Positions 49,858 to 62,043 of a stretch of DNA of 64,000 bases are shown piece after piece. The notes under the pieces are model-generated. The model did not search any database and was not told the DNA's origin. It was given only the letters and a program-made list of their open reading frames with translations. Positions within the stretch are counted from its first letter, which is position 1. Each line of letters starts with the position of its first letter. Position numbers and translations under genes: made by a program. Origin of the DNA: Verrucomicrobiota bacterium (lineage in GTDB: Bacteria > Verrucomicrobiota > Verrucomicrobiia > Opitutales > Seribacteraceae); the NCBI GenBank assembly GCA_027622665.1, contig JAQBYT010000003.1:128001-192000 (forward strand), in the 5' to 3' direction.

Positions 49858-51426
49858 ATGAACAAAGATTTATATCTCGAATTCAAGGATGCCAATTTTT
49901 GGGCTGACTTCTCATTCGTCGACTTTCCCGAAGGTTATCTCGAGTCGATGGGAACTAGTGTCAACGACGCCTTAGTTGCCATGAGGGAACTGGAGGGAGG
50001 AGCGTTAGCCAACCCAGATGAAAATCGCATGGTTGGTCACTATTGGCTTCGAGCCCCTGAACTAGCTCCCAGCGAAGAGATAAGAAACGCCATACAAGAT
50101 ACACTCGCTAAGACAAAAAATCTAGCCAACCGAGTCCATGAAGGCGACTTGAGAGCGCCTGCCGGTGCATTTACCGACCTTCTGATCATAGGTATTGGGG
50201 GTTCCGCACTAGGTCCGCAGTTCGTAGGAAGAGCATTGGGACACCCAAAGACAAATAAGTTGGCGGTACATTTCTTCGACAACACCGATCCCGACGGCAT
50301 AGATTTGACCCTCGCCGAAATTGATGAACGACTAGCCACCACTCTGGTCATCGTAATTTCGAAGTCCGGAGGCACCCCTGAAACTCGGAACGGCATGCTA
50401 GAAGCAGAGAACGCATTTGCCCAAAATGGCTTAGACTTAGCAAAACAAGCCATCGCAATTACTGGAGAAGGCAGCAAACTACACCAACACGCCACCTCAA
50501 AAGGTTGGCTAGATTTCCTCCCTATGTGGGATTGGGTCGGTGGCAGGACTAGCGAAACAGCTGTGGTGGGACTCCTACCGGCGGCTCTTCAGGGGATCGA
50601 CATCGACGCATTCCTTGAAGGAGCCAAAGTGATGGACAAACTCACTCGAGTGAGTGACTTCCAGAACAACCCTGCGGCCATGCTAGCCATTGCATGGCAT
50701 TACCTCACCGATGGCAAAGGTTCGCGCGACATGGTGATTCTTCCATACAAGGATCGCCTCGAGTTGTTCGCCAAGTACCTCCAACAACTGGTGATGGAGT
50801 CTCTCGGCAAGGAAAGAGACCTCGATGGCAATACAGTTCACCAAGGCATTGCAGTCTATGGAAACAAGGGGTCGACCGACCAGCACGCCTATGTTCAACA
50901 ATTACGAGAGGGTGTGCCCAACTTCTTCGCCACTTTCATAGAGGTCCTCAAGCACCGTGAGACTGCAAGTCCTCCGGTGGATGACGACGGCATGACATCA
51001 GGCGAATACCTGCACGGATTCTTCTTGGGCACACGAGATGCCCTTTACGATAAGGGGCGGAAATCGATCACCCTTACAATCCAAGAAATCACTCCCGCCT
51101 CAGTTGGCGGTCTCATTGCCCTCTTCGAGCGAGCAGTCGGACTCTACGCCTCGCTAATCGGTATCAACGCGTACAACCAACCGGGAGTTGAGGCAGGGAA
51201 GAAAGCGGCCGCATCCGTACTGGAAGTAAGGAAATCCGTTTGCGATTATCTACAAAAGAACGAGCAGTCCCCTATGAAAGCAAAGGAAATTGCATTAGCC
51301 ATCGGCTGTTCCAGCCGAGAAACATGGATTTACAAGATCTTGGAGAACCTTGTTGCCAACCAACCCGAAACCTACGCAAGAGAATCCGGCGCCCACTCGC
51401 TGGCGGATCGATTCGTCAAAGTTTAA
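49858..51426 (+). CDS. pgi: Glucose-6-phosphate isomerase
   Basis: ANPDENRMVGHYWLR, GIGGSALG, SKSGGTPET, VGGRTS, QQLVMESLGK, QPGVEAGK. Confidence 0.98.
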   Translation: MNKDLYLEFKDANFWADFSFVDFPEGYLESMGTSVNDALVAMRELEGGALANPDENRMVGHYWLRAPELAPSEEIRNAIQDTLAKTKNLANRVHEGDLRAPAGAFTDLLIIGIGGSALGPQFVGRALGHPKTNKLAVHFFDNTDPDGIDLTLAEIDERLATTLVIVISKSGGTPETRNGMLEAENAFAQNGLDLAKQAIAITGEGSKLHQHATSKGWLDFLPMWDWVGGRTSETAVVGLLPAALQGIDIDAFLEGAKVMDKLTRVSDFQNNPAAMLAIAWHYLTDGKGSRDMVILPYKDRLELFAKYLQQLVMESLGKERDLDGNTVHQGIAVYGNKGSTDQHAYVQQLREGVPNFFATFIEVLKHRETASPPVDDDGMTSGEYLHGFFLGTRDALYDKGRKSITLTIQEITPASVGGLIALFERAVGLYASLIGINAYNQPGVEAGKKAAASVLEVRKSVCDYLQKNEQSPMKAKEIALAIGCSSRETWIYKILENLVANQPETYARESGAHSLADRFVKV

Positions 51427-52490
51427 TCAAGCACGTTCGGAGGTTTCTTCGGCTTGAGTTTGGTCGTTGCGCCGGGCTTGGGTTTAGGGGGCGGCGGCAC
51501 TTTCGAACGACCCAAGTCATGGTGTCCCCAGTAGTAACTCCACCAATCACTAGAGCGGTGAGCGGGTTTCCATCCGGCGGGAAATTTTCTTTTGGATGAA
51601 ATTTCCCGAGCAGCCAAGTAAGTCGAAAAACTATCGGGAAAGACCTCGAACAAGAGATAACGATCGGTAGGTTTGAGAGAGGCCAAAGTTTTCATGTATG
51701 CGGAACCTGATTTACCCAAAGCCAATTCGTCTTCGCCCACGTTGGGACGGCGTTCCATGGTGAATCGTATAAGTTTGTCTCCCCCGGGAATCGCCGTGAG
51801 GCTAAAGAACGCGTTCCCGGGTTTCTTTTGACCGAAATGGGCAGCTAACTTCTTGCCATCGTACTCCCTATCTTTGTTCGGCTTTATTCCGGATTGGGCG
51901 ATGGCTTTATCGGCGCTTTTCCGCAAATTCGAATCGTCCAGAGGATAGATTTTTCCCTCCCTGCATAGAAACCGAAAGGGGGTAGCCTTTGGCGGAGCAG
52001 GCTTGGGGTCCGGCAAGTTGACGTCCTTGCTCAGACTTTTGGACGAGGGCTTTGGAGCCTTGGCCAACAAACCTTTTATTTTCTTTAGCTTCACTTCGAT
52101 TTTTTTCTTCTCGTCATCGACCTTTTTCTTCTCAGTTTGTAAGACTGTTGGATTCCCCAAACTTTTGGGTACTGAAGACTTAAGATCGGATAATTTTTTT
52201 TCCAACTTGGCGATCTCGCGGACAAACTGTTGATCCTCCTTGTTCTTTGCCGCCATTCCCAATTCCAATTTTTTCTTCTCTTCCAGCAACCCGTTTCGCT
52301 GATCTTCGAATTGCCGCATCGCCATCTCCATTAACTCATCGTAATTTTTCTCGTCCACGATGCGCTTGACCGCTGAATCAGCTCCGAGTTGCACAACGAT
52401 GAGCAAAATAATAAGGATACCAACGACCGTTGTCATCGTATCCAACAAGGAATCAAGGCTGCCTACCGCGTCTTTCTTTCTTTTTTTCAC
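51423..52490 (-). CDS. Single-TM ExbD/MotB-like partner with coiled coil (Asp-bearing)
   Basis: Basic N-terminus, SLDSLLDTMTTVVGILIILLIVV, coiled coil, Pro/Lys linker, C-terminal FEVFPDSF...A.E....GW.P domain; downstream of the ExbB-like gene. Confidence 0.7.
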   Translation of the reverse strand: MKKRKKDAVGSLDSLLDTMTTVVGILIILLIVVQLGADSAVKRIVDEKNYDELMEMAMRQFEDQRNGLLEEKKKLELGMAAKNKEDQQFVREIAKLEKKLSDLKSSVPKSLGNPTVLQTEKKKVDDEKKKIEVKLKKIKGLLAKAPKPSSKSLSKDVNLPDPKPAPPKATPFRFLCREGKIYPLDDSNLRKSADKAIAQSGIKPNKDREYDGKKLAAHFGQKKPGNAFFSLTAIPGGDKLIRFTMERRPNVGEDELALGKSGSAYMKTLASLKPTDRYLLFEVFPDSFSTYLAAREISSKRKFPAGWKPAHRSSDWWSYYWGHHDLGRSKVPPPPKPKPGATTKLKPKKPPNVLD

Positions 52491-53476
52491 GATCCCGAAA
52501 AGAGTGAAAGATCGATTTCACCCTCTCCATCAAGAGGGAGGTGCCCGAATCGGCAATCGTACTTCGCGCAAACTTGGGTGGCTTTATACCATGCAGCGAT
52601 ACCTTTGCTCCGCACCAAAAAGATCACGAAACGAGCTTCCGGATCAGGTCTATTAGCCTTGCGTGCCTCCTCGTATTTGCGAACGATCTGTCGAGATGCT
52701 GGTGACAATTGCAAGGCAGGGAACCGCAGAATCTTTCCCTTTTTGTCTTTGAGTGTAATCGTGCTGCCATCTCGCTTTATGAACTGAGCGTCCATCTTAC
52801 TTCCTTTGGCACTTTGCCAACTTCGATACGGTGCTTCCTTCGCCAGCATCTTAACCAATTTCTGCAGCTTAGGGTTGTTCGAAATTTCCGATGTTTTCAC
52901 CTCGTAAGCAATGTCTTTGCCTTCATACACACGTATCCCAATGTCACGGCACTCTATAAACGTAGGCTCCAAATCGCCCCCCACCCCTGATCCACTCTGC
53001 TTAACTACCATAGTCTCGAATTCATTTGGATCCTTCATCAGGTCCCACTCCTCCTCGGCTTCATCAAAGTTTTCGGTCAATATTGCGATTTCCGCCGACA
53101 CCTTCTGACTCTCCGCCTTCAATGCAGTAGATTTTTTGTTTTGCTGCAAAACGGCTGACTTCTTTTTTTCAATCGCAGCTATTTCGACAACAAGCTTCTC
53201 CTTTTTCGCCGGATCAATTTTTTTCGTTGGATTTGCTCGAATAGACTTAATCTCATTGCGAATCTTTTCGATGATCGCCTTTTGTTCATCCATTTTCTTC
53301 TGAAATTCCTCGTCCTCCTCCAACGCAGTCTCGATTTTTTCGTTAACCGCTTCCGGATCGATTTGAGCTATCACGACAGCCGTAATCATCAAAGTGAGGA
53401 TTCCCAAAACGCATGCCAGGATGCTGAGGAAGGGGAAAAGCGAGACCTGCAGGTCGTTGTTTTTTTTCTTCTTCAA
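52487..53476 (-). CDS. Single-TM ExbD-like partner with coiled coil and inserted SHD1-like domain
   Basis: VSLFPFLSILACVLGILTLMI (no Asp); coiled coil; RSWQSAKGSKMDAQF...ITLKDKKGKILRFPALQLSPASRQIV (SHD1-like); C-terminal FLVRSKG...FGHLP. Confidence 0.7.
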   Translation of the reverse strand: MKKKKNNDLQVSLFPFLSILACVLGILTLMITAVVIAQIDPEAVNEKIETALEEDEEFQKKMDEQKAIIEKIRNEIKSIRANPTKKIDPAKKEKLVVEIAAIEKKKSAVLQQNKKSTALKAESQKVSAEIAILTENFDEAEEEWDLMKDPNEFETMVVKQSGSGVGGDLEPTFIECRDIGIRVYEGKDIAYEVKTSEISNNPKLQKLVKMLAKEAPYRSWQSAKGSKMDAQFIKRDGSTITLKDKKGKILRFPALQLSPASRQIVRKYEEARKANRPDPEARFVIFLVRSKGIAAWYKATQVCAKYDCRFGHLPLDGEGEIDLSLFSGS

Positions 53477-53499
53477 GGTTACGGCTCCATAAACGTCAC

Positions 53500-54567
53500 C
53501 TAACTCCGTTGGTCTGCCTTCGGTTCATTCGCCGACTCAACCCCCGCGATGGCGGCATAATGATGTGCGACGTGAGTCATTTGCTCCGCAACGTAAGTCT
53601 GTGACTCCTGAACTTGGACAAGATATGCCTGCAGGTTCTCGATGCGTTGCAGGAGGGCGGAAGGATCGCCGGAAGCATGAACTGAATCGGTTGGTTCGCG
53701 GAGACGCTTTAGAAAGTACTCGTTACAATACTCGTCCACCTTATTGAGCAGATCCTCTTCGGCTTTTTGCATCATACTAGTCGGAAACATCACGAACAAG
53801 CTGAAAACGAGCGACACCAAGGTGGTATCAAATGCTTCGCTCAAGCCACCCGTGACTTGACCTAATTTCTCCTTGATGACTGCAATATCGGCGGCAGCGC
53901 CCATCTCGCCGCCAAAACTTGAGACTGCATCACTAATACCAAGAACGGTACCAATGAATCCAAGTATCGGAATAGCCCAGATGAACACCTTGATAATAAC
54001 GTAACTGGACTCGACCATAGTCGCGTCGATCTCGGATTGAGAAGACAGCACGTCCGCCGTTTCCGAATGATTTCGCCGTACTCGAAAGTGTTCCAATCCC
54101 CTTAGGATTCGAGTGATAAGGAAGCTTTCCTTAGGATCGAAACCTAAACGCTTAACATGAGCCTCGAAATGCGAGAGGTTTTCAATTCGGATATCTTCGG
54201 ATATTTCTTCCGGCAAAACCTTGAACTGGATGACACTCAACTGATTCATCAGCTTACGCCGCTTAAACCAGAGGATAGCGAACGACCAGCAGGCCAAGTA
54301 AGTGAGAACGAAAGGGACCCAACCTCGGTCATAAAAATAAAGATAAATCACGTTTGTGCTCTCGGAGATATGGAACACCAAAATGAAAAGGTAGAACGCA
54401 ATGCCCAATGCGAGCCCAAGCAATGCAGCCTTGGCCATCGGAACGGATGTGGCGGAAGCGTTGTCGAACTTACCCATTTCGCCGGCGCTTCGCTGCATCA
54501 CGTTGATTTGGGTGAACTTGTCCTTGTCCACCGCAATTTTACGGACTGTTCCTTTTTGCTGAGCCAT
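53500..54567 (-). CDS. MotA/TolQ/ExbB proton channel family protein
   Basis: Four TM segments; WAIPILGFIGTVLGI and GGLSEAFDTTLVSL; start at MAQQ (54567). Confidence 0.9.
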   Translation of the reverse strand: MAQQKGTVRKIAVDKDKFTQINVMQRSAGEMGKFDNASATSVPMAKAALLGLALGIAFYLFILVFHISESTNVIYLYFYDRGWVPFVLTYLACWSFAILWFKRRKLMNQLSVIQFKVLPEEISEDIRIENLSHFEAHVKRLGFDPKESFLITRILRGLEHFRVRRNHSETADVLSSQSEIDATMVESSYVIIKVFIWAIPILGFIGTVLGISDAVSSFGGEMGAAADIAVIKEKLGQVTGGLSEAFDTTLVSLVFSLFVMFPTSMMQKAEEDLLNKVDEYCNEYFLKRLREPTDSVHASGDPSALLQRIENLQAYLVQVQESQTYVAEQMTHVAHHYAAIAGVESANEPKADQRS

Positions 54568-55233: not shown

Positions 55234-56289
55234 CTAAGGTTTTACTGCAGGCCCGAAAGGATCGGCTGGTAAAGGTGGCTCACCTCCGGGAACAGGCATA
55301 GGCACAGGACCACCGGGTGCAGGTGCAAAAGGATTTGCTTCAATGGGTGCGGGGCTGGCAGGGTCAGGAGCAGGTCCGCCAGGTGCAGGGGCAAAAGGAT
55401 TTGCGTCAATGGGCGCGGGGACGGCAGGGTCAGGAGCAGGTCCACCAGGTTCAGGTGCAAAAGGGTTGGCCGGCATGGGGAAGTTTCCTCCTCCGGGAAC
55501 CATTGGCGGCACACCGCCAGGATCAAGAGGTGGTGCAAGAGGTTGCCCCATGACAGGGAGACCCAAACCAGGAGGAACTCCGGGATCGGGATTAGGAACC
55601 GCCACAGGACCACCACCGGGAAATGGAGCCGCCGGCATAGCCGTACCCGGAAGAGGAGCAGAGGGAACTGCCCCTGGCAAAGGGGTGAAAGGCGAGGGAG
55701 TGGCAATTACTCCCGATCCTACGCCCGAGGGGGGAAGTTCGAAGGGTGCCATTTCCGGAGTTCCATCGGCCACAGGGAAGGGTTCGGGCGAAAAGGGAGC
55801 TGGTTCCGGCGCAAAGGGAGCTGGTTCCGGTACTGAGGAAATGACCGGATTGGGAGAAAAAGGCTCCGATGAAGGTTCAAACGTTGGAGCGGGAAAAGCG
55901 GAAGCGGGAACGAATGAGTTGTCGCCAGGTCGCGAAGCAGGTTCAGGTTTCTCTGCTTTAACTACATCGGTTTCGGGATTAGCCTCCAAGTCCTCGACCT
56001 TGACGTTCCGTACCCACCAGTCACGAAAAACTATGGATCCGTCTTCCTTATATTCTTGAACGGCTCCCCAACGAGTCCCTTTGTGTACAGGAATAAGAAG
56101 GCGACGATCGTGATCGTACGTGTGTCGAGCCATCCACGATTTCTCTACGGCCGCAACCCTGTAAGGAGATGCAAAACCAGGAGCACGAGCACCGCGATAC
56201 TCAGCAACCGAGCGACACGAACCAAGAAAGAAGGTAAAGCTCAGGAGACATGACAACCCGAGGAATAGTGATAACCTTATCGAGTTCAT
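55234..56289 (-). CDS. Lipoprotein with short WxARxxYD domain and long Pro-rich xPF tail
   Basis: MNSIRL...FFLGSC lipobox; WMARHTYDHDRRLLI...EDGSIVFRDWW; 11 xPF motifs including 3 NPF and 1 DPF. Confidence 0.8.
   Translation of the reverse strand: MNSIRLSLFLGLSCLLSFTFFLGSCRSVAEYRGARAPGFASPYRVAAVEKSWMARHTYDHDRRLLIPVHKGTRWGAVQEYKEDGSIVFRDWWVRNVKVEDLEANPETDVVKAEKPEPASRPGDNSFVPASAFPAPTFEPSSEPFSPNPVISSVPEPAPFAPEPAPFSPEPFPVADGTPEMAPFELPPSGVGSGVIATPSPFTPLPGAVPSAPLPGTAMPAAPFPGGGPVAVPNPDPGVPPGLGLPVMGQPLAPPLDPGGVPPMVPGGGNFPMPANPFAPEPGGPAPDPAVPAPIDANPFAPAPGGPAPDPASPAPIEANPFAPAPGGPVPMPVPGGEPPLPADPFGPAVKP
55307..55470 (-). repeat. Imperfect 66-nt intragenic tandem repeat (about 2.5 copies)
   Basis: Encodes ANPFAP(E/A)PGGPAPDPA(V/S)PAPI(D/E) units. 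Confidence 0.85.
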
Positions 56290-56350
56290 GTAATAACAAA
56301 AAGGCATCTAAGCCCAACAAGCAAGCGAGGAGTGAGCGAGGGATGGGGAT

Positions 56351-59636: not shown

Positions 59637-60590
59637 TTAGGAATCGGTAGCTACGCCATCGGATGACGTATTGGATTCAGGGGCTGAGTCGTCTTCCTTG
59701 TCAAGCGTGCCCCCCTCCTCTGGTGTCGAATCCCCGGAACGCTCGATTTCTATCTGTTCATCAGCCTTAAGGAATACATTGGGTTCTCCGAAGCCGGGGA
59801 TTTCCTCCGCAAAGCAGTAATTAGACTGCACGAGAGTGGCACGAAGGCGTCTAGAACGACGACTGGGGGCGTTTGGGGCAGTCCGACGGACAAGGAACTC
59901 CATTCCCTTCTTGATGCCATCCTGATAGCCAACGGGTAAAAACACACCGGCTCCCGAAGGTCTGGCATTCGTCACGGTGACGTTCAATTTATCGGCATAA
60001 TAAATCCAAGGCGGGGTCTTAATGCTGTCTCGATAAAATTTTTCTCGGTCTCGAAAATCGACGAGAATTTGTTCGCGGGCAAAAATAAGTTTGTCGAGCT
60101 TGGACTGAAGGGTTTGGGTTTCCTTTTGGACACCCGCCAATTCCACCTCCAAGCCTTTGCGCGTGGCAGCAATTCCATCTGCATCGGTCTTCAATGGCCC
60201 CAACCGTGCATTGACTTCGGCAAGCTTGGACTGAGCGTCCAGACGCGAAGGAACCAATCCCTCGCTCTGCGTTTCGGCTTCCTTGAACTCTTCAGCCACC
60301 TTGGCGAGCTCACTTTTCAGGTAATCAATTTTTTCTTTGGTTTCCTTAAAGGCGCCTTGGGCCTCATCGATGGCTTCCCTATGTTCACTGATTTCACGAA
60401 AAACAGCTGCAAGGGCAAGCTTGGAGGCATTCTCGTCTACAACCATCTCCTTCTTCAGGTTCTCAATGGAATCTTCACGATCTGCACGACGTTCTTCTTT
60501 TTCGGCAACGATGCCCGGAACAATCGCAAAGGCGATTCCGGCCAAAAGGGTAAGCCCCCATGCAAAAAATCTAGAGATTTGTGATTTCAA
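59637..60590 (-). CDS. Membrane-anchored coiled-coil protein with C-terminal beta domain
   Basis: TM FFAWGLTLLAGIAFAIV; long coiled coil; PPWI...GVFLPVGYQDGIKKGMEFLV; start uncertain (TTG 60590 or 60626). Confidence 0.75.
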   Translation of the reverse strand: MKSQISRFFAWGLTLLAGIAFAIVPGIVAEKEERRADREDSIENLKKEMVVDENASKLALAAVFREISEHREAIDEAQGAFKETKEKIDYLKSELAKVAEEFKEAETQSEGLVPSRLDAQSKLAEVNARLGPLKTDADGIAATRKGLEVELAGVQKETQTLQSKLDKLIFAREQILVDFRDREKFYRDSIKTPPWIYYADKLNVTVTNARPSGAGVFLPVGYQDGIKKGMEFLVRRTAPNAPSRRSRRLRATLVQSNYCFAEEIPGFGEPNVFLKADEQIEIERSGDSTPEEGGTLDKEDDSAPESNTSSDGVATDS

Positions 60591-61416
60591 CGTTTTGGTT
60601 TTCTCGCAAGCCACCGATGCGCCCAAACATGGGAATAATCATAGCAACGCTATGAGATAAGCCAGCCTCCTTGACCAAGATCTGGCATAGGCGCCGGCCT
60701 TTGTCGGAGACGATGAACCGCATATTCTCCTCCAAGCCTTTGTTGCGACCGATGGGAAGCATCAGCACTCCGGCTTTCAAGTTGAGACTTTGTACACGGG
60801 TAGAGAGGCTTTCCCCACGCTCAATCCATGGTCGCTCGTTCAAATCTCGCTCAAGGGCAGCTAGCACACTCTTGTAATGAAAGTCCAGCGTACGGGTCTC
60901 GTCGGCATAGTCAGCCAACTGATCCTGTACACCCTCACCGTTTGCTCGTTCTTCCTCTATTCGATTTCTTATGGTCTGTAGCTCAGCAGTTTTTGCGGGA
61001 TTTGCCAAAGCTAGCCGATCGAAATCCTCCTGAGCATGCTCAAATTCTTTCTTTAGAGCCTCGATGGCGAGGTTAGCCTGATGGGTCGCATCACGAGTTT
61101 GGGCAACCTTGTCTCGCTCCGCCTGAAGGTTAGACTCAGATTCCAGAATGAGACGTTCGTTAGAAATGGTATCTTGCTTGATTGAGCTCAATTCATCCTG
61201 AAGGCTCTGATTGTCCCGTTTCTTTCGGGCTAGGTTGGCTTCTTGGGCACTCTTTTTTTCGGCCGCAGATTGCTCCAGTAGAGAAAATTCTTCGTTGAGC
61301 GTACTTAGCTGAGTGGAGGCATCCTCACCCCGCATCCAAAGCAACAATACGAATACCAAGGCGGCAATAGAGAAAATTATCGCAAGCCAAATTTCGATCC
61401 GAGAAATTTTGTACAT
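60571..61416 (-). CDS. Membrane-anchored coiled-coil protein with C-terminal beta domain (paralog of neighbour)
   Basis: TM IWLAIIFSIAALVFVLLLW; coiled coil; RPWI...GVLMLPIGRNKGLEENMRFIV. Confidence 0.78.
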   Translation of the reverse strand: MYKISRIEIWLAIIFSIAALVFVLLLWMRGEDASTQLSTLNEEFSLLEQSAAEKKSAQEANLARKKRDNQSLQDELSSIKQDTISNERLILESESNLQAERDKVAQTRDATHQANLAIEALKKEFEHAQEDFDRLALANPAKTAELQTIRNRIEEERANGEGVQDQLADYADETRTLDFHYKSVLAALERDLNERPWIERGESLSTRVQSLNLKAGVLMLPIGRNKGLEENMRFIVSDKGRRLCQILVKEAGLSHSVAMIIPMFGRIGGLRENQNVEITNL

Positions 61417-61419
61417 ATG

Positions 61420-62043
61420 CTATAAGGGAGGCAAGGGAGCAAAAGGGGAAGGAGCAACTACATCTCCTACGCCCGGTAAAGGTGGCAAACCGGAATCCGG
61501 CGGCATTGGAGCAAATGGGGATGGCGCCGCCGGGTCTTCGGGAATGGCGGGAGTAGGAAGCGGGCCAAGTTCCTCGATGACCGGGGTAGTGGGAGCAAAT
61601 GGTTCAGGAACGAAAGGCAACGGCTCTTCGGTTGCGGGTGGTTCCGAATCTTCGACGGCATCGGGTTTCGAAATATCCATACCGGCTTCCTTTTCTATTT
61701 CCTTGCGCCTAGAGTTCAACCTAGCTTTCTCGGACTCTATCCAGCGTTTTTCGCGAATGGCATCTTCATCCTTTCGCCTTGCAATCATGAGGTTCTCAGT
61801 AATGAGGGGGCCCCTTCCCCACCAACGATCGTAATCAATGAGGCCATTTTCATTTCGCCCCCAGTTCCTTCCGATTCGCTTATTTCCAAACGAGGAGATG
61901 AGTCGACGATTATCAAGATCATAATGGTATCGAGCATTCCATTCTTGATAAACAATCGGAGCTTCGCTCTCCGTACGATAAAAGCACCCATCGAACAAAA
62001 CGATGGCAATAATAGAAAGTAGACTTGAAGGAAATACCCTCAT
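61420..62043 (-). CDS. Lipoprotein with WxARxxYD domain and Pro-rich xPF tail
   Basis: VLFDGC lipobox-like; WNARYHYDLDNRRLI...ENGLIDYDRWW; tail with LPF, EPF and two SPF. Confidence 0.75.
   Translation of the reverse strand: MRVFPSSLLSIIAIVLFDGCFYRTESEAPIVYQEWNARYHYDLDNRRLISSFGNKRIGRNWGRNENGLIDYDRWWGRGPLITENLMIARRKDEDAIREKRWIESEKARLNSRRKEIEKEAGMDISKPDAVEDSEPPATEEPLPFVPEPFAPTTPVIEELGPLPTPAIPEDPAAPSPFAPMPPDSGLPPLPGVGDVVAPSPFAPLPPL

Follow-up and report, generated by a model that had tools for sequence, protein, structure and literature searches.

A conserved ExbBD/TolQR-class gene triplet of Verrucomicrobiota whose two partner proteins usually differ at the membrane aspartate

The stretch of DNA analysed here (the window: 64,000 nucleotides, contig JAQBYT010000003.1, of a 4.5 Mb Verrucomicrobiota genome) contains a gene triplet that we conclude to be a real, conserved and undescribed variant of the ExbBD/TolQR motor class. 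The triplet consists of three open reading frames (ORFs) on the minus strand: a channel gene, A (53500..54567, 355 aa, ATG start), followed by the genes for two paralogous partners with a single transmembrane (TM) segment each, B1 (52487..53476, 329 aa, TTG start) and B2 (51423..52490, 355 aa, GTG start); all features given below lie on the same strand. For A, the ATG was preferred to the upstream TTG of the ORF list because the closest homolog has 355 aa at 100% coverage. The genes A and B1 are spaced by 23 nt, and the stop of B1 overlaps the start of B2 by 4 nt (GTGA), as had been pointed out in a preliminary description of this DNA. The motifs quoted in that description (LDSLLDTMTTVVGILI, LFPFLSILACVLGILT, AFDTTL, PFRFLCREG / PTFIECRDIG and FEVFPDS..GWKP / FLVRSKG..GHLP) were all found in the ORFs, and hydropathy bears out the one TM segment attributed to each partner, with four in A. 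Both partners have a basic N-terminus, a TM segment, a stalk and a head, the TM segment of B1 being without an Asp and that of B2 containing Asp13 and Asp17; B2 ends in a Pro-rich tail. Across the loci that we compared, the Asp is a fixed feature of B2 and an optional one of B1.

That A is a channel of the MotA/TolQ/ExbB family had been proposed before, and is now established by its four TM segments and by a match to Pfam PF01618 (MotA_ExbB) above the curated cut-off (E 1.3e-9, 38.3 bits versus 22.9). The protein falls far under the cut-off of the TolQ model, its similarity to ZorA profiles is weak (PADLOC ZorA2, E 3.2e-5), and the best PDB sequence match of its core is 8vvn (E 0.23), which we take to be ZorA. 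Against PDB sequences, the full profiles of A and B1 gave nothing but coiled-coil noise, and the short B1 profile had no match. Pro200, Thr207, Phe246 and Thr249 are invariant in 46/46 diverse A homologs. Thr207 (53947..53949) is the first ring threonine, within a P..G..GT motif common to the ExbB/TolQ proteins of the genome, and Thr249 (53821..53823) is the second. Two residues before the latter lies Asp247 of the AFDTT motif (53827..53829), a column that reads D35 E7 Y4 in the 46 rows and is hydrophobic in all seven canonical ExbB/TolQ proteins of the host genome that match the motif. In 5:2 motors the threonine ring faces the axle (PMC12204202). As the ring threonines and the Pro are kept, the axle-facing ring is intact, with Asp247 as an additional family trait two residues upstream.

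Compared as single sequences, B1 and B2 share 26% over 107 aa (E 9e-4), and their profiles are homologous end to end (hhalign, 99.55%, E 2.3e-23), in keeping with the similar architecture first ascribed to them; in this alignment Ser18 of B1 (codon AGC, 53423..53425) stands opposite Asp17 of B2 (52440..52442). AlphaFold2 models (mean pLDDT 81 for B1 and 82 for B2) predict a TM helix, a long stalk and an alpha/beta head for each. The long stalks expected from the preliminary description are seen in both models as length-matched helices of about 100 residues, namely residues 41-148 of B1 (53033..53356) and 50-143 of B2 (52062..52343). The head of B1 (residues 159-316, 52529..53002) is predicted to have the periplasmic fold of TolR/ExbD, because comparison of the model with 48,161 chains placed two structures on top, SHD1 (SLA1 homology domain 1; 2hbp, Z 8.6, rmsd 1.7, 56 aligned) and E. 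coli TolR (5by4, VIA-align Z 8.1, rmsd 2.9, 86 aligned of 105), the next unrelated row having a Z of 6.5. An ExbD-like nature of the partners, as previously suggested, thus finds support in the fold of the B1 head. The SHD1 match corresponds to an insertion in this head (residues 216-271, 52664..52831), which is also the top row of Foldseek, scores under the Pfam cut-off (SHD1, E 0.038), and is limited to the subclade of the window, other B1 rows being without it. The head of B2 (residues 170-309, 51564..51983) has the topology of the B1 head with an insertion, and would have the same fold by profile homology to B1. Fold searches with the whole B2 model gave lists filled by stalk matches, which are uninformative on its head, and the ESM Atlas returned unnamed PVC clusters at 0.89-0.90 for the B2 head and nothing usable for the B1 head. 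Neither the SHD1 insertion nor Asp13 of B2 (52452..52454), a further acid that lies one turn of the helix closer to the cytoplasm than Asp17 and is present in 126/129 rows, had been noticed in the preliminary description.

Neither B1 nor B2 of the window matches the Pfam ExbD family (PF02472), and a B1 relative with a short stalk reaches E 0.0036 and 17.8 bits for a cut-off of 25.4. When compared directly with canonical ExbD, the long B1 and B2 profiles align over the N-terminus only, with a probability of 8-9% (two ExbD rows being shortened). The register was therefore fixed via short-stalk relatives. Firstly, the short-stalk B1 profile is homologous to B1 of the window (99.6%). Secondly, it aligns with the ExbD proteins of the genome itself with the Ser opposite the Asp (85.7%, E 5.5e-6). 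Thirdly, the short-stalk B2 profile has two matches in the PDB (E up to 10), both ExbD (E 0.024 and 0.026), and its Asp falls on the Asp of NVTPFIDV in solved ExbD. Each of these profile links is modest, and they concur in placing the Asp/no-Asp difference of the preliminary description in the column of ExbD Asp25.

To follow this column, 122 loci with an A gene were assembled: 36 regions from a sample of 201 genomes of the phylum (33 genomes matched), the best 80 of 581 metagenome matches to A of the window, three genome contigs, the second triplet of the genome, and two cyanobacterial plasmids; the family is common, with homologs in planctomycetes as well. The counts include the window, nine loci were entered by hand, and loci missing from a count were cut by contig ends or uncalled. 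The residue of B1 in the Asp column, read in 109 loci, is Ser in 70, Asp in 25, Cys in 10, Asn in two, and Ala and Thr in one each, and that of B2 is Asp in 92/92 loci. The codon of the Ser is AGY in 66/69 loci. Where both could be read (89 loci), the pair was no-Asp/Asp 65 times and Asp/Asp 24 times, and neither Asp/no-Asp nor a pair lacking both was found. A separate set of 129 B2 rows contains Asp 125 times, a gap three times and Asn once. The D/no-D pattern of the preliminary description is one-directional over these loci, but not absolute, in view of the B1 proteins that have the Asp; the free variation that it had named as evidence against its proposal is not seen either, since variation is confined to B1. 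The three ordinary exbB-exbD-exbD clusters of the host genome keep the Asp in both partners, so a one-to-two gene order alone does not bring about its loss.

Among 59 representatives of less than 75% identity, 42 have a B1 without and 17 a B1 with Asp, two clusters being mixed. The tree of their A proteins requires at least four changes of the B1 state, and a single clade of all Asp rows is rejected (p-AU 4.7e-41). A rooted tree of 44 rows (41 representatives from the set of 59, to which three Asp rows were added), with six rows of a sister family as outgroup, recovers the family as one starred clade with three branches of unresolved order: one with two Asp residues, one with short stalks in which B1 is mostly Asp-less, and the long-stalk branch of the window. 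This tree has five changes of the B1 state, and in the long-stalk branch the Asp is interspersed with Ser relatives at three distinct places, with Asp copies beside Ser sisters on starred branches for L111 and L107 and for L137 and L115. The sister family is the nearest other A family retrieved in the order (AFNST/AFYTT; L163-L181), where it is common; its stalked partner pairs have vWA matches, and the Asp is present in both partners at 14/14 loci in which both TM motifs were read. Of 20 newly fetched loci held out as a check, 19 belonged to this sister family, and the single true member was Ser/Asp.

The absence of the Asp might indicate that B1 is a decaying remnant, which lost it once B2 or another motor had taken over. 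Several lines of evidence make this very improbable. The Ser is found in all 105 close B1 homologs that have an N-terminus (15 of 120 lack one), and its range extends from Verrucomicrobiota and metagenome contigs to cyanobacterial plasmids. Purifying selection acts on B1, with a dN/dS of 0.17-0.18 versus two relatives (0.64 at a dS of 0.02 for one very close pair), and it is retained together with B2 in 78/79 loci with at least 2.6 kb downstream.

Another possibility is that a complex of one B1, one B2 and five A subunits (5:1:1) works with two ion sites, the Asp of B1 being replaced by Asp247 of A or Asp13 of B2. A charged residue anywhere in positions 13-37 of B1 itself occurs in 2/54 Asp-less rows. 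The acid of AF[DE]TT is found in 40/42 Asp-less representatives and Asp13 in 61/63 loci with an Asp-less B1, the two positions are non-acidic in the canonical ExbB/ExbD of the genome and in the vWA-headed sister family (AFNST), and all 11 AFETT rows have an Asp in B1. On the other hand, both acids stay when B1 has its Asp (in 15/17 representatives for A and 19/20 loci for B2), and they are absent with a Ser in B1 at L148 and L150 (AFNTT) and at L062 (AFYCT, and no acid at -4 in B2 either). Furthermore, four independent pairs revealed no covariation of the A acid with the B1 state, although these are too few for significance either way. Being two residues from a ring Thr, Asp247 would not be on the side of a regular helix that faces the pore, and the invariant Arg81 is a candidate structural partner for it. 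We regard such a two-site complex as quite improbable. The AFDTT acid as a stand-in for the missing Asp, suggested in the preliminary description, is not supported: strict compensation by Asp247 was rejected as a rule, because the acid does not track the B1 state and is lost in 2/42 Asp-less representatives.

In all loci the B1 gene precedes the B2 gene. The distance between the Asp column and the head is matched within pairs (rho 0.83, n=45), a correlation in which kin are not independent and a few clades drive the value; it amounts to about 42-65 residues where the stalks are short and to 113-209 where they are long. A predicted B1-B2 complex obtained a score of 0.52 versus 0.00 for the best control, with contacts agreeing in at least 82% between runs and a partner pLDDT of at least 74. 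The mark set for such predictions is reached by 116/157 solved and 2/215 mismatched pairs, and 18 of the solved pairs and both mismatches lie at or below 0.60, so that 0.52 counts as weak support. Charge complementarity of the stalks gave no signal (rho -0.26, p 0.16, n=30, with 16 representatives skipped and noisy regex anchors).

Co-occurrence, matched stalk lengths and the weakly predicted B1-B2 pairing fit a 5:1:1 assembly, and the explanation we favour, with somewhat better than even confidence, is that a ring of five A subunits holds a heterodimeric axle of B1 and B2, in which only Asp17 of B2 is required. The family membership of A and its intact Pro/Thr ring residues suggest that it forms the usual pentameric ring. 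The stalks would then span the periplasm alongside each other, each with a TolR-type head that is probably anchored in the cell wall. Asp17 of B2 would be the sole required ion-binding residue, and the B1 helix a structural partner whose site may hold Ser, Asp, Cys, Asn, Ala or Thr. With one ion site instead of two alternating ones, the motor might advance in 72-degree steps with five ions per turn, or act as a back-and-forth ratchet.

The same data could be read as an ordinary motor of five A subunits and a B2 homodimer with two Asp residues, B1 being an accessory that acts as an inert plug, as a competitor throttling the motor, or as a stalk-bound adaptor outside the pore. Every canonical feature is present in B2 alone, and many residues are tolerated at the B1 position. 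In E. coli ExbD only D25E retains activity (5-10%) and D25N is dominant negative (bioRxiv 10.1101/2022.09.26.509584), and an Asp-less paralogue could likewise act as a brake. We nevertheless consider this reading unlikely, because the TM segment of B1 contains an invariant Gly and Phe in register with B2, its stalk length matches that of B2, and the Asp was regained or kept by B1 in several lineages, which fits a pore-lining position; in addition, B2 without B1 was found in no locus with enough room.

Several observations weigh against the heterodimeric axle itself. The B1-B2 score is weak and may reflect likeness to solved ExbD/TolR dimers, and it covers the heterodimer alone. The dominant negative effect of ExbD D25N argues that a single inactive helix in the axle can be enough to poison a canonical motor. 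One locus (L102, 5588-7886) has A and a Ser-type B1, and no B2 within 6.4 kb downstream. B1 has the Asp in 25/109 loci, including the second triplet of the host genome, and one B2 homolog of 129 has Asn. The Ser counts are inflated by one clade, because the metagenome sample consists of the 80 best matches to A of the window. Finally, A of the window is without the zinc ribbon and long tail seen in relatives, and its surroundings are housekeeping genes with no clade-wide neighbour.

By anatomy the triplet resembles a 5:2 motor, and by the membership features tested it is not Ton, Tol-Pal, Zorya or the TPH-vWA system; the conserved TM Asp of the class is present in B2 (Asp17) and absent from B1 (Ser18). 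With ExbB-ExbD and TolQ-TolR it shares a PF01618 channel with the ring Thr/Pro residues, single-pass partners, a TolR-like head and the Asp25 equivalent in B2. Unlike these systems, it has a four-TM A, two different partners with stalks of about 100 residues, a B1 that usually lacks the Asp, no TonB or TolA gene at the locus, and B proteins under the Pfam ExbD cut-off. Zorya shares with the triplet the weak similarity of A to ZorA profiles, the cytoplasmic tails of relatives, and the location of some copies in defence islands. It differs in that no ZorC, ZorD or ZorE is found at the triplet and the cytoplasmic, helical C-terminal tail of A in the window is short; PADLOC searches with B1 and B2 gave no match better than E 0.006, in coiled-coil regions only. 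The head of ZorB is OmpA-like. ZorB is described as a homodimer in which Asp26 is essential (PMC11946911), and non-flagellar stator relatives are structurally diverse (PMC12505986).

Similar in gene content is AglR-AglQ-AglS of Myxococcus xanthus, with one channel gene and two TolR-like partners. An AlphaFold model combines five AglR with an AglQS heterodimer (PMC11761067), and AglQ and AglS are both predicted to have the conserved Asp, with the question of hetero- or homodimers left open (PMC9389320; background on Myxococcus ExbD1/ExbD2 and AglQ/S in PMC11658791 and PMC9120999). The Asp in both partners and the Glt partners, which are lacking at the triplet locus, set this system apart. The preliminary statement that B subunits normally act as homodimers was nonetheless too strong, given the AglQ/AglS model. 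Heterologous tolR-like pairs are also known from PVC bacteria, as are TPH-vWA pairs with one Asp per monomer and orphan TolQ-like genes (PMC12204202). Like the triplet, the TPH-vWA systems have heterologous axle pairs without TonB; unlike it, they have vWA instead of TolR-type heads and the Asp in both partners, whereas B1 of the window has Ser18. No vWA domain was matched by Pfam in B1 or B2. From the description in that paper, the AFNST/AFYTT sister family is probably the TPH-vWA family.

The triplet is flanked by a convergent gene that we presume to be pgi-like on one side and by ORFs without Pfam matches on the other. The stop codon of B2 shares 4 nt (51423-51426) with that of a convergent gene of 522 aa. 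A comparison of neighbourhoods found no conserved neighbour genes around the triplets of the window's clade, and promoter and terminator scans of the triplet were at or below chance. Contigs from RNA runs span portions of each of the three genes, and likewise of the flanks, at low depth and may reflect DNA carry-over. Elsewhere in the window, 55234-56307 and 61420-62043 encode lipoprotein-like proteins with a short conserved N-terminal domain, long Pro-rich tails and no Pfam match, and in 59637-61416 two single-TM coiled-coil ORFs overlap, whose C-terminal beta domains are similar and for which no Pfam match was above cut-off.

Some relatives depart from the usual layout. Six loci of one short-stalk branch (L050, L053 and L055-L058) have a secreted-type gene of 650-700 aa between A and B1, with weak NHL-repeat matches in 3/4 tested; their B1 Asp site is Cys, Asn or Ala. 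At L140 (7637-10480) and L144 (2-2848), A is about 947 aa, roughly double its normal size, and includes a long helical region. The second triplet of the host genome (L005, 6625-9755; also L162, contig C20) has the Asp in both partners. It lies downstream of GAP1-N2, DO-GTPase2, GYF/RDD and vWA genes and upstream of genes for an Ig/TSP3 protein and a squalene-cyclase-like protein.

The two-Asp FxFQD branch as a whole adjoins GAP1-N2, DO-GTPase, GYF and vWA genes, and GAP1 and DO-GTPase genes were found in 10/13 loci of this clade by an HMM seeded from five of them; neither is present beside the window copy or beside 44 Asp-less loci with 6 kb upstream. GAP1-N2/DO-GTPase genes are predicted conflict systems (PMC7159879), and the main text of that paper makes no mention of MotA, ExbB, TolQ or proton. 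Ser/Asp triplets with short stalks, carried by plasmids of Microcystis and Anabaena (L152, 7863-10463, and L153, 7851-10430), directly follow CBASS and helicase genes and a type III-B Cmr operon that includes a CARF-HEPN gene, with viperin nearby. Such surroundings raise the possibility that the triplet is no rotary motor but a sensor or gated ion channel, or else a sodium-coupled device in which the Ser helps to bind the ion, opened by displacement of the heads. Two points favour it: the turnstile model (PMC9389320) is left without its basis when one of the two symmetric sites is lost, and defence-like genes, including a CBASS cyclase with a 2TM effector, lie beside the two cyanobacterial copies, with GAP1-N2/DO-GTPase beside the two-Asp clade. 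We give it little credence, since the ring Thr/Pro residues are invariant, the cyanobacterial loci are only two and both plasmid-borne, and the 44 Asp-less loci have no GAP1-like gene.

As for the output of the proposed heterodimeric motor, no TonB/TolA transducer, TolB/Pal or TonB-dependent receptor was found among the scanned flanking ORFs or conserved neighbours of the 122 loci, an unlinked partner being possible. In Asp-less representatives, the C-terminal tail of A exceeds 130 residues in 36/41, and 22 of these 36 also have a zinc ribbon. Given the lack of a linked TonB/TolA-like gene, and given that A of most Asp-less relatives ends in a coiled tail in the cytoplasm, frequently with a zinc ribbon, our leading but tentative guess, by analogy with ZorAB, is that the motor may be an envelope sensor signalling inward. 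Force transfer to an unlinked transducer is the next candidate, and a rather doubtful one.

No account of this triplet family or of a one-Asp axle pair was found in the literature within reach, which excluded most subscription papers and supplements; the neighbourhood tables of PMC7159879 and the figures of PMC12204202 may show these genes. Heterologous axle pairs are already in print (AglQ/S, PVC pairs, TPH-vWA), with the Asp in both partners where stated. What is new is the conserved Asp asymmetry of the partners, together with the SHD1 insertion in B1. What makes this asymmetry valuable is that constraint on the axle Asp has been lost in one partner only, and always in the same one, a finding relevant to the two-site model. 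In the current 5:2 model, one proton is spent per 36-degree step while the axle sites swap, giving ten ions per turn; according to the review that presents it, a turn driven by five ions would call for a wholly new model (PMC9389320). A one-site axle cannot be built cleanly in the homodimeric MotB, ExbD and TolR, whereas a naturally heterodimeric axle with a single fixed Asp, together with close relatives that have two, would make the question of one site or two directly testable. It is conceivable, though we would not yet bet on it, that the family is a widespread natural 5:1:1 ion motor running on a single Asp, in which sister lineages toggle the second site by one codon. If this is true, two alternating protonation sites would be dispensable in this motor class, and the family would offer natural pairs of one-site and two-site motors in which step size and the number of ions per turn could be measured.

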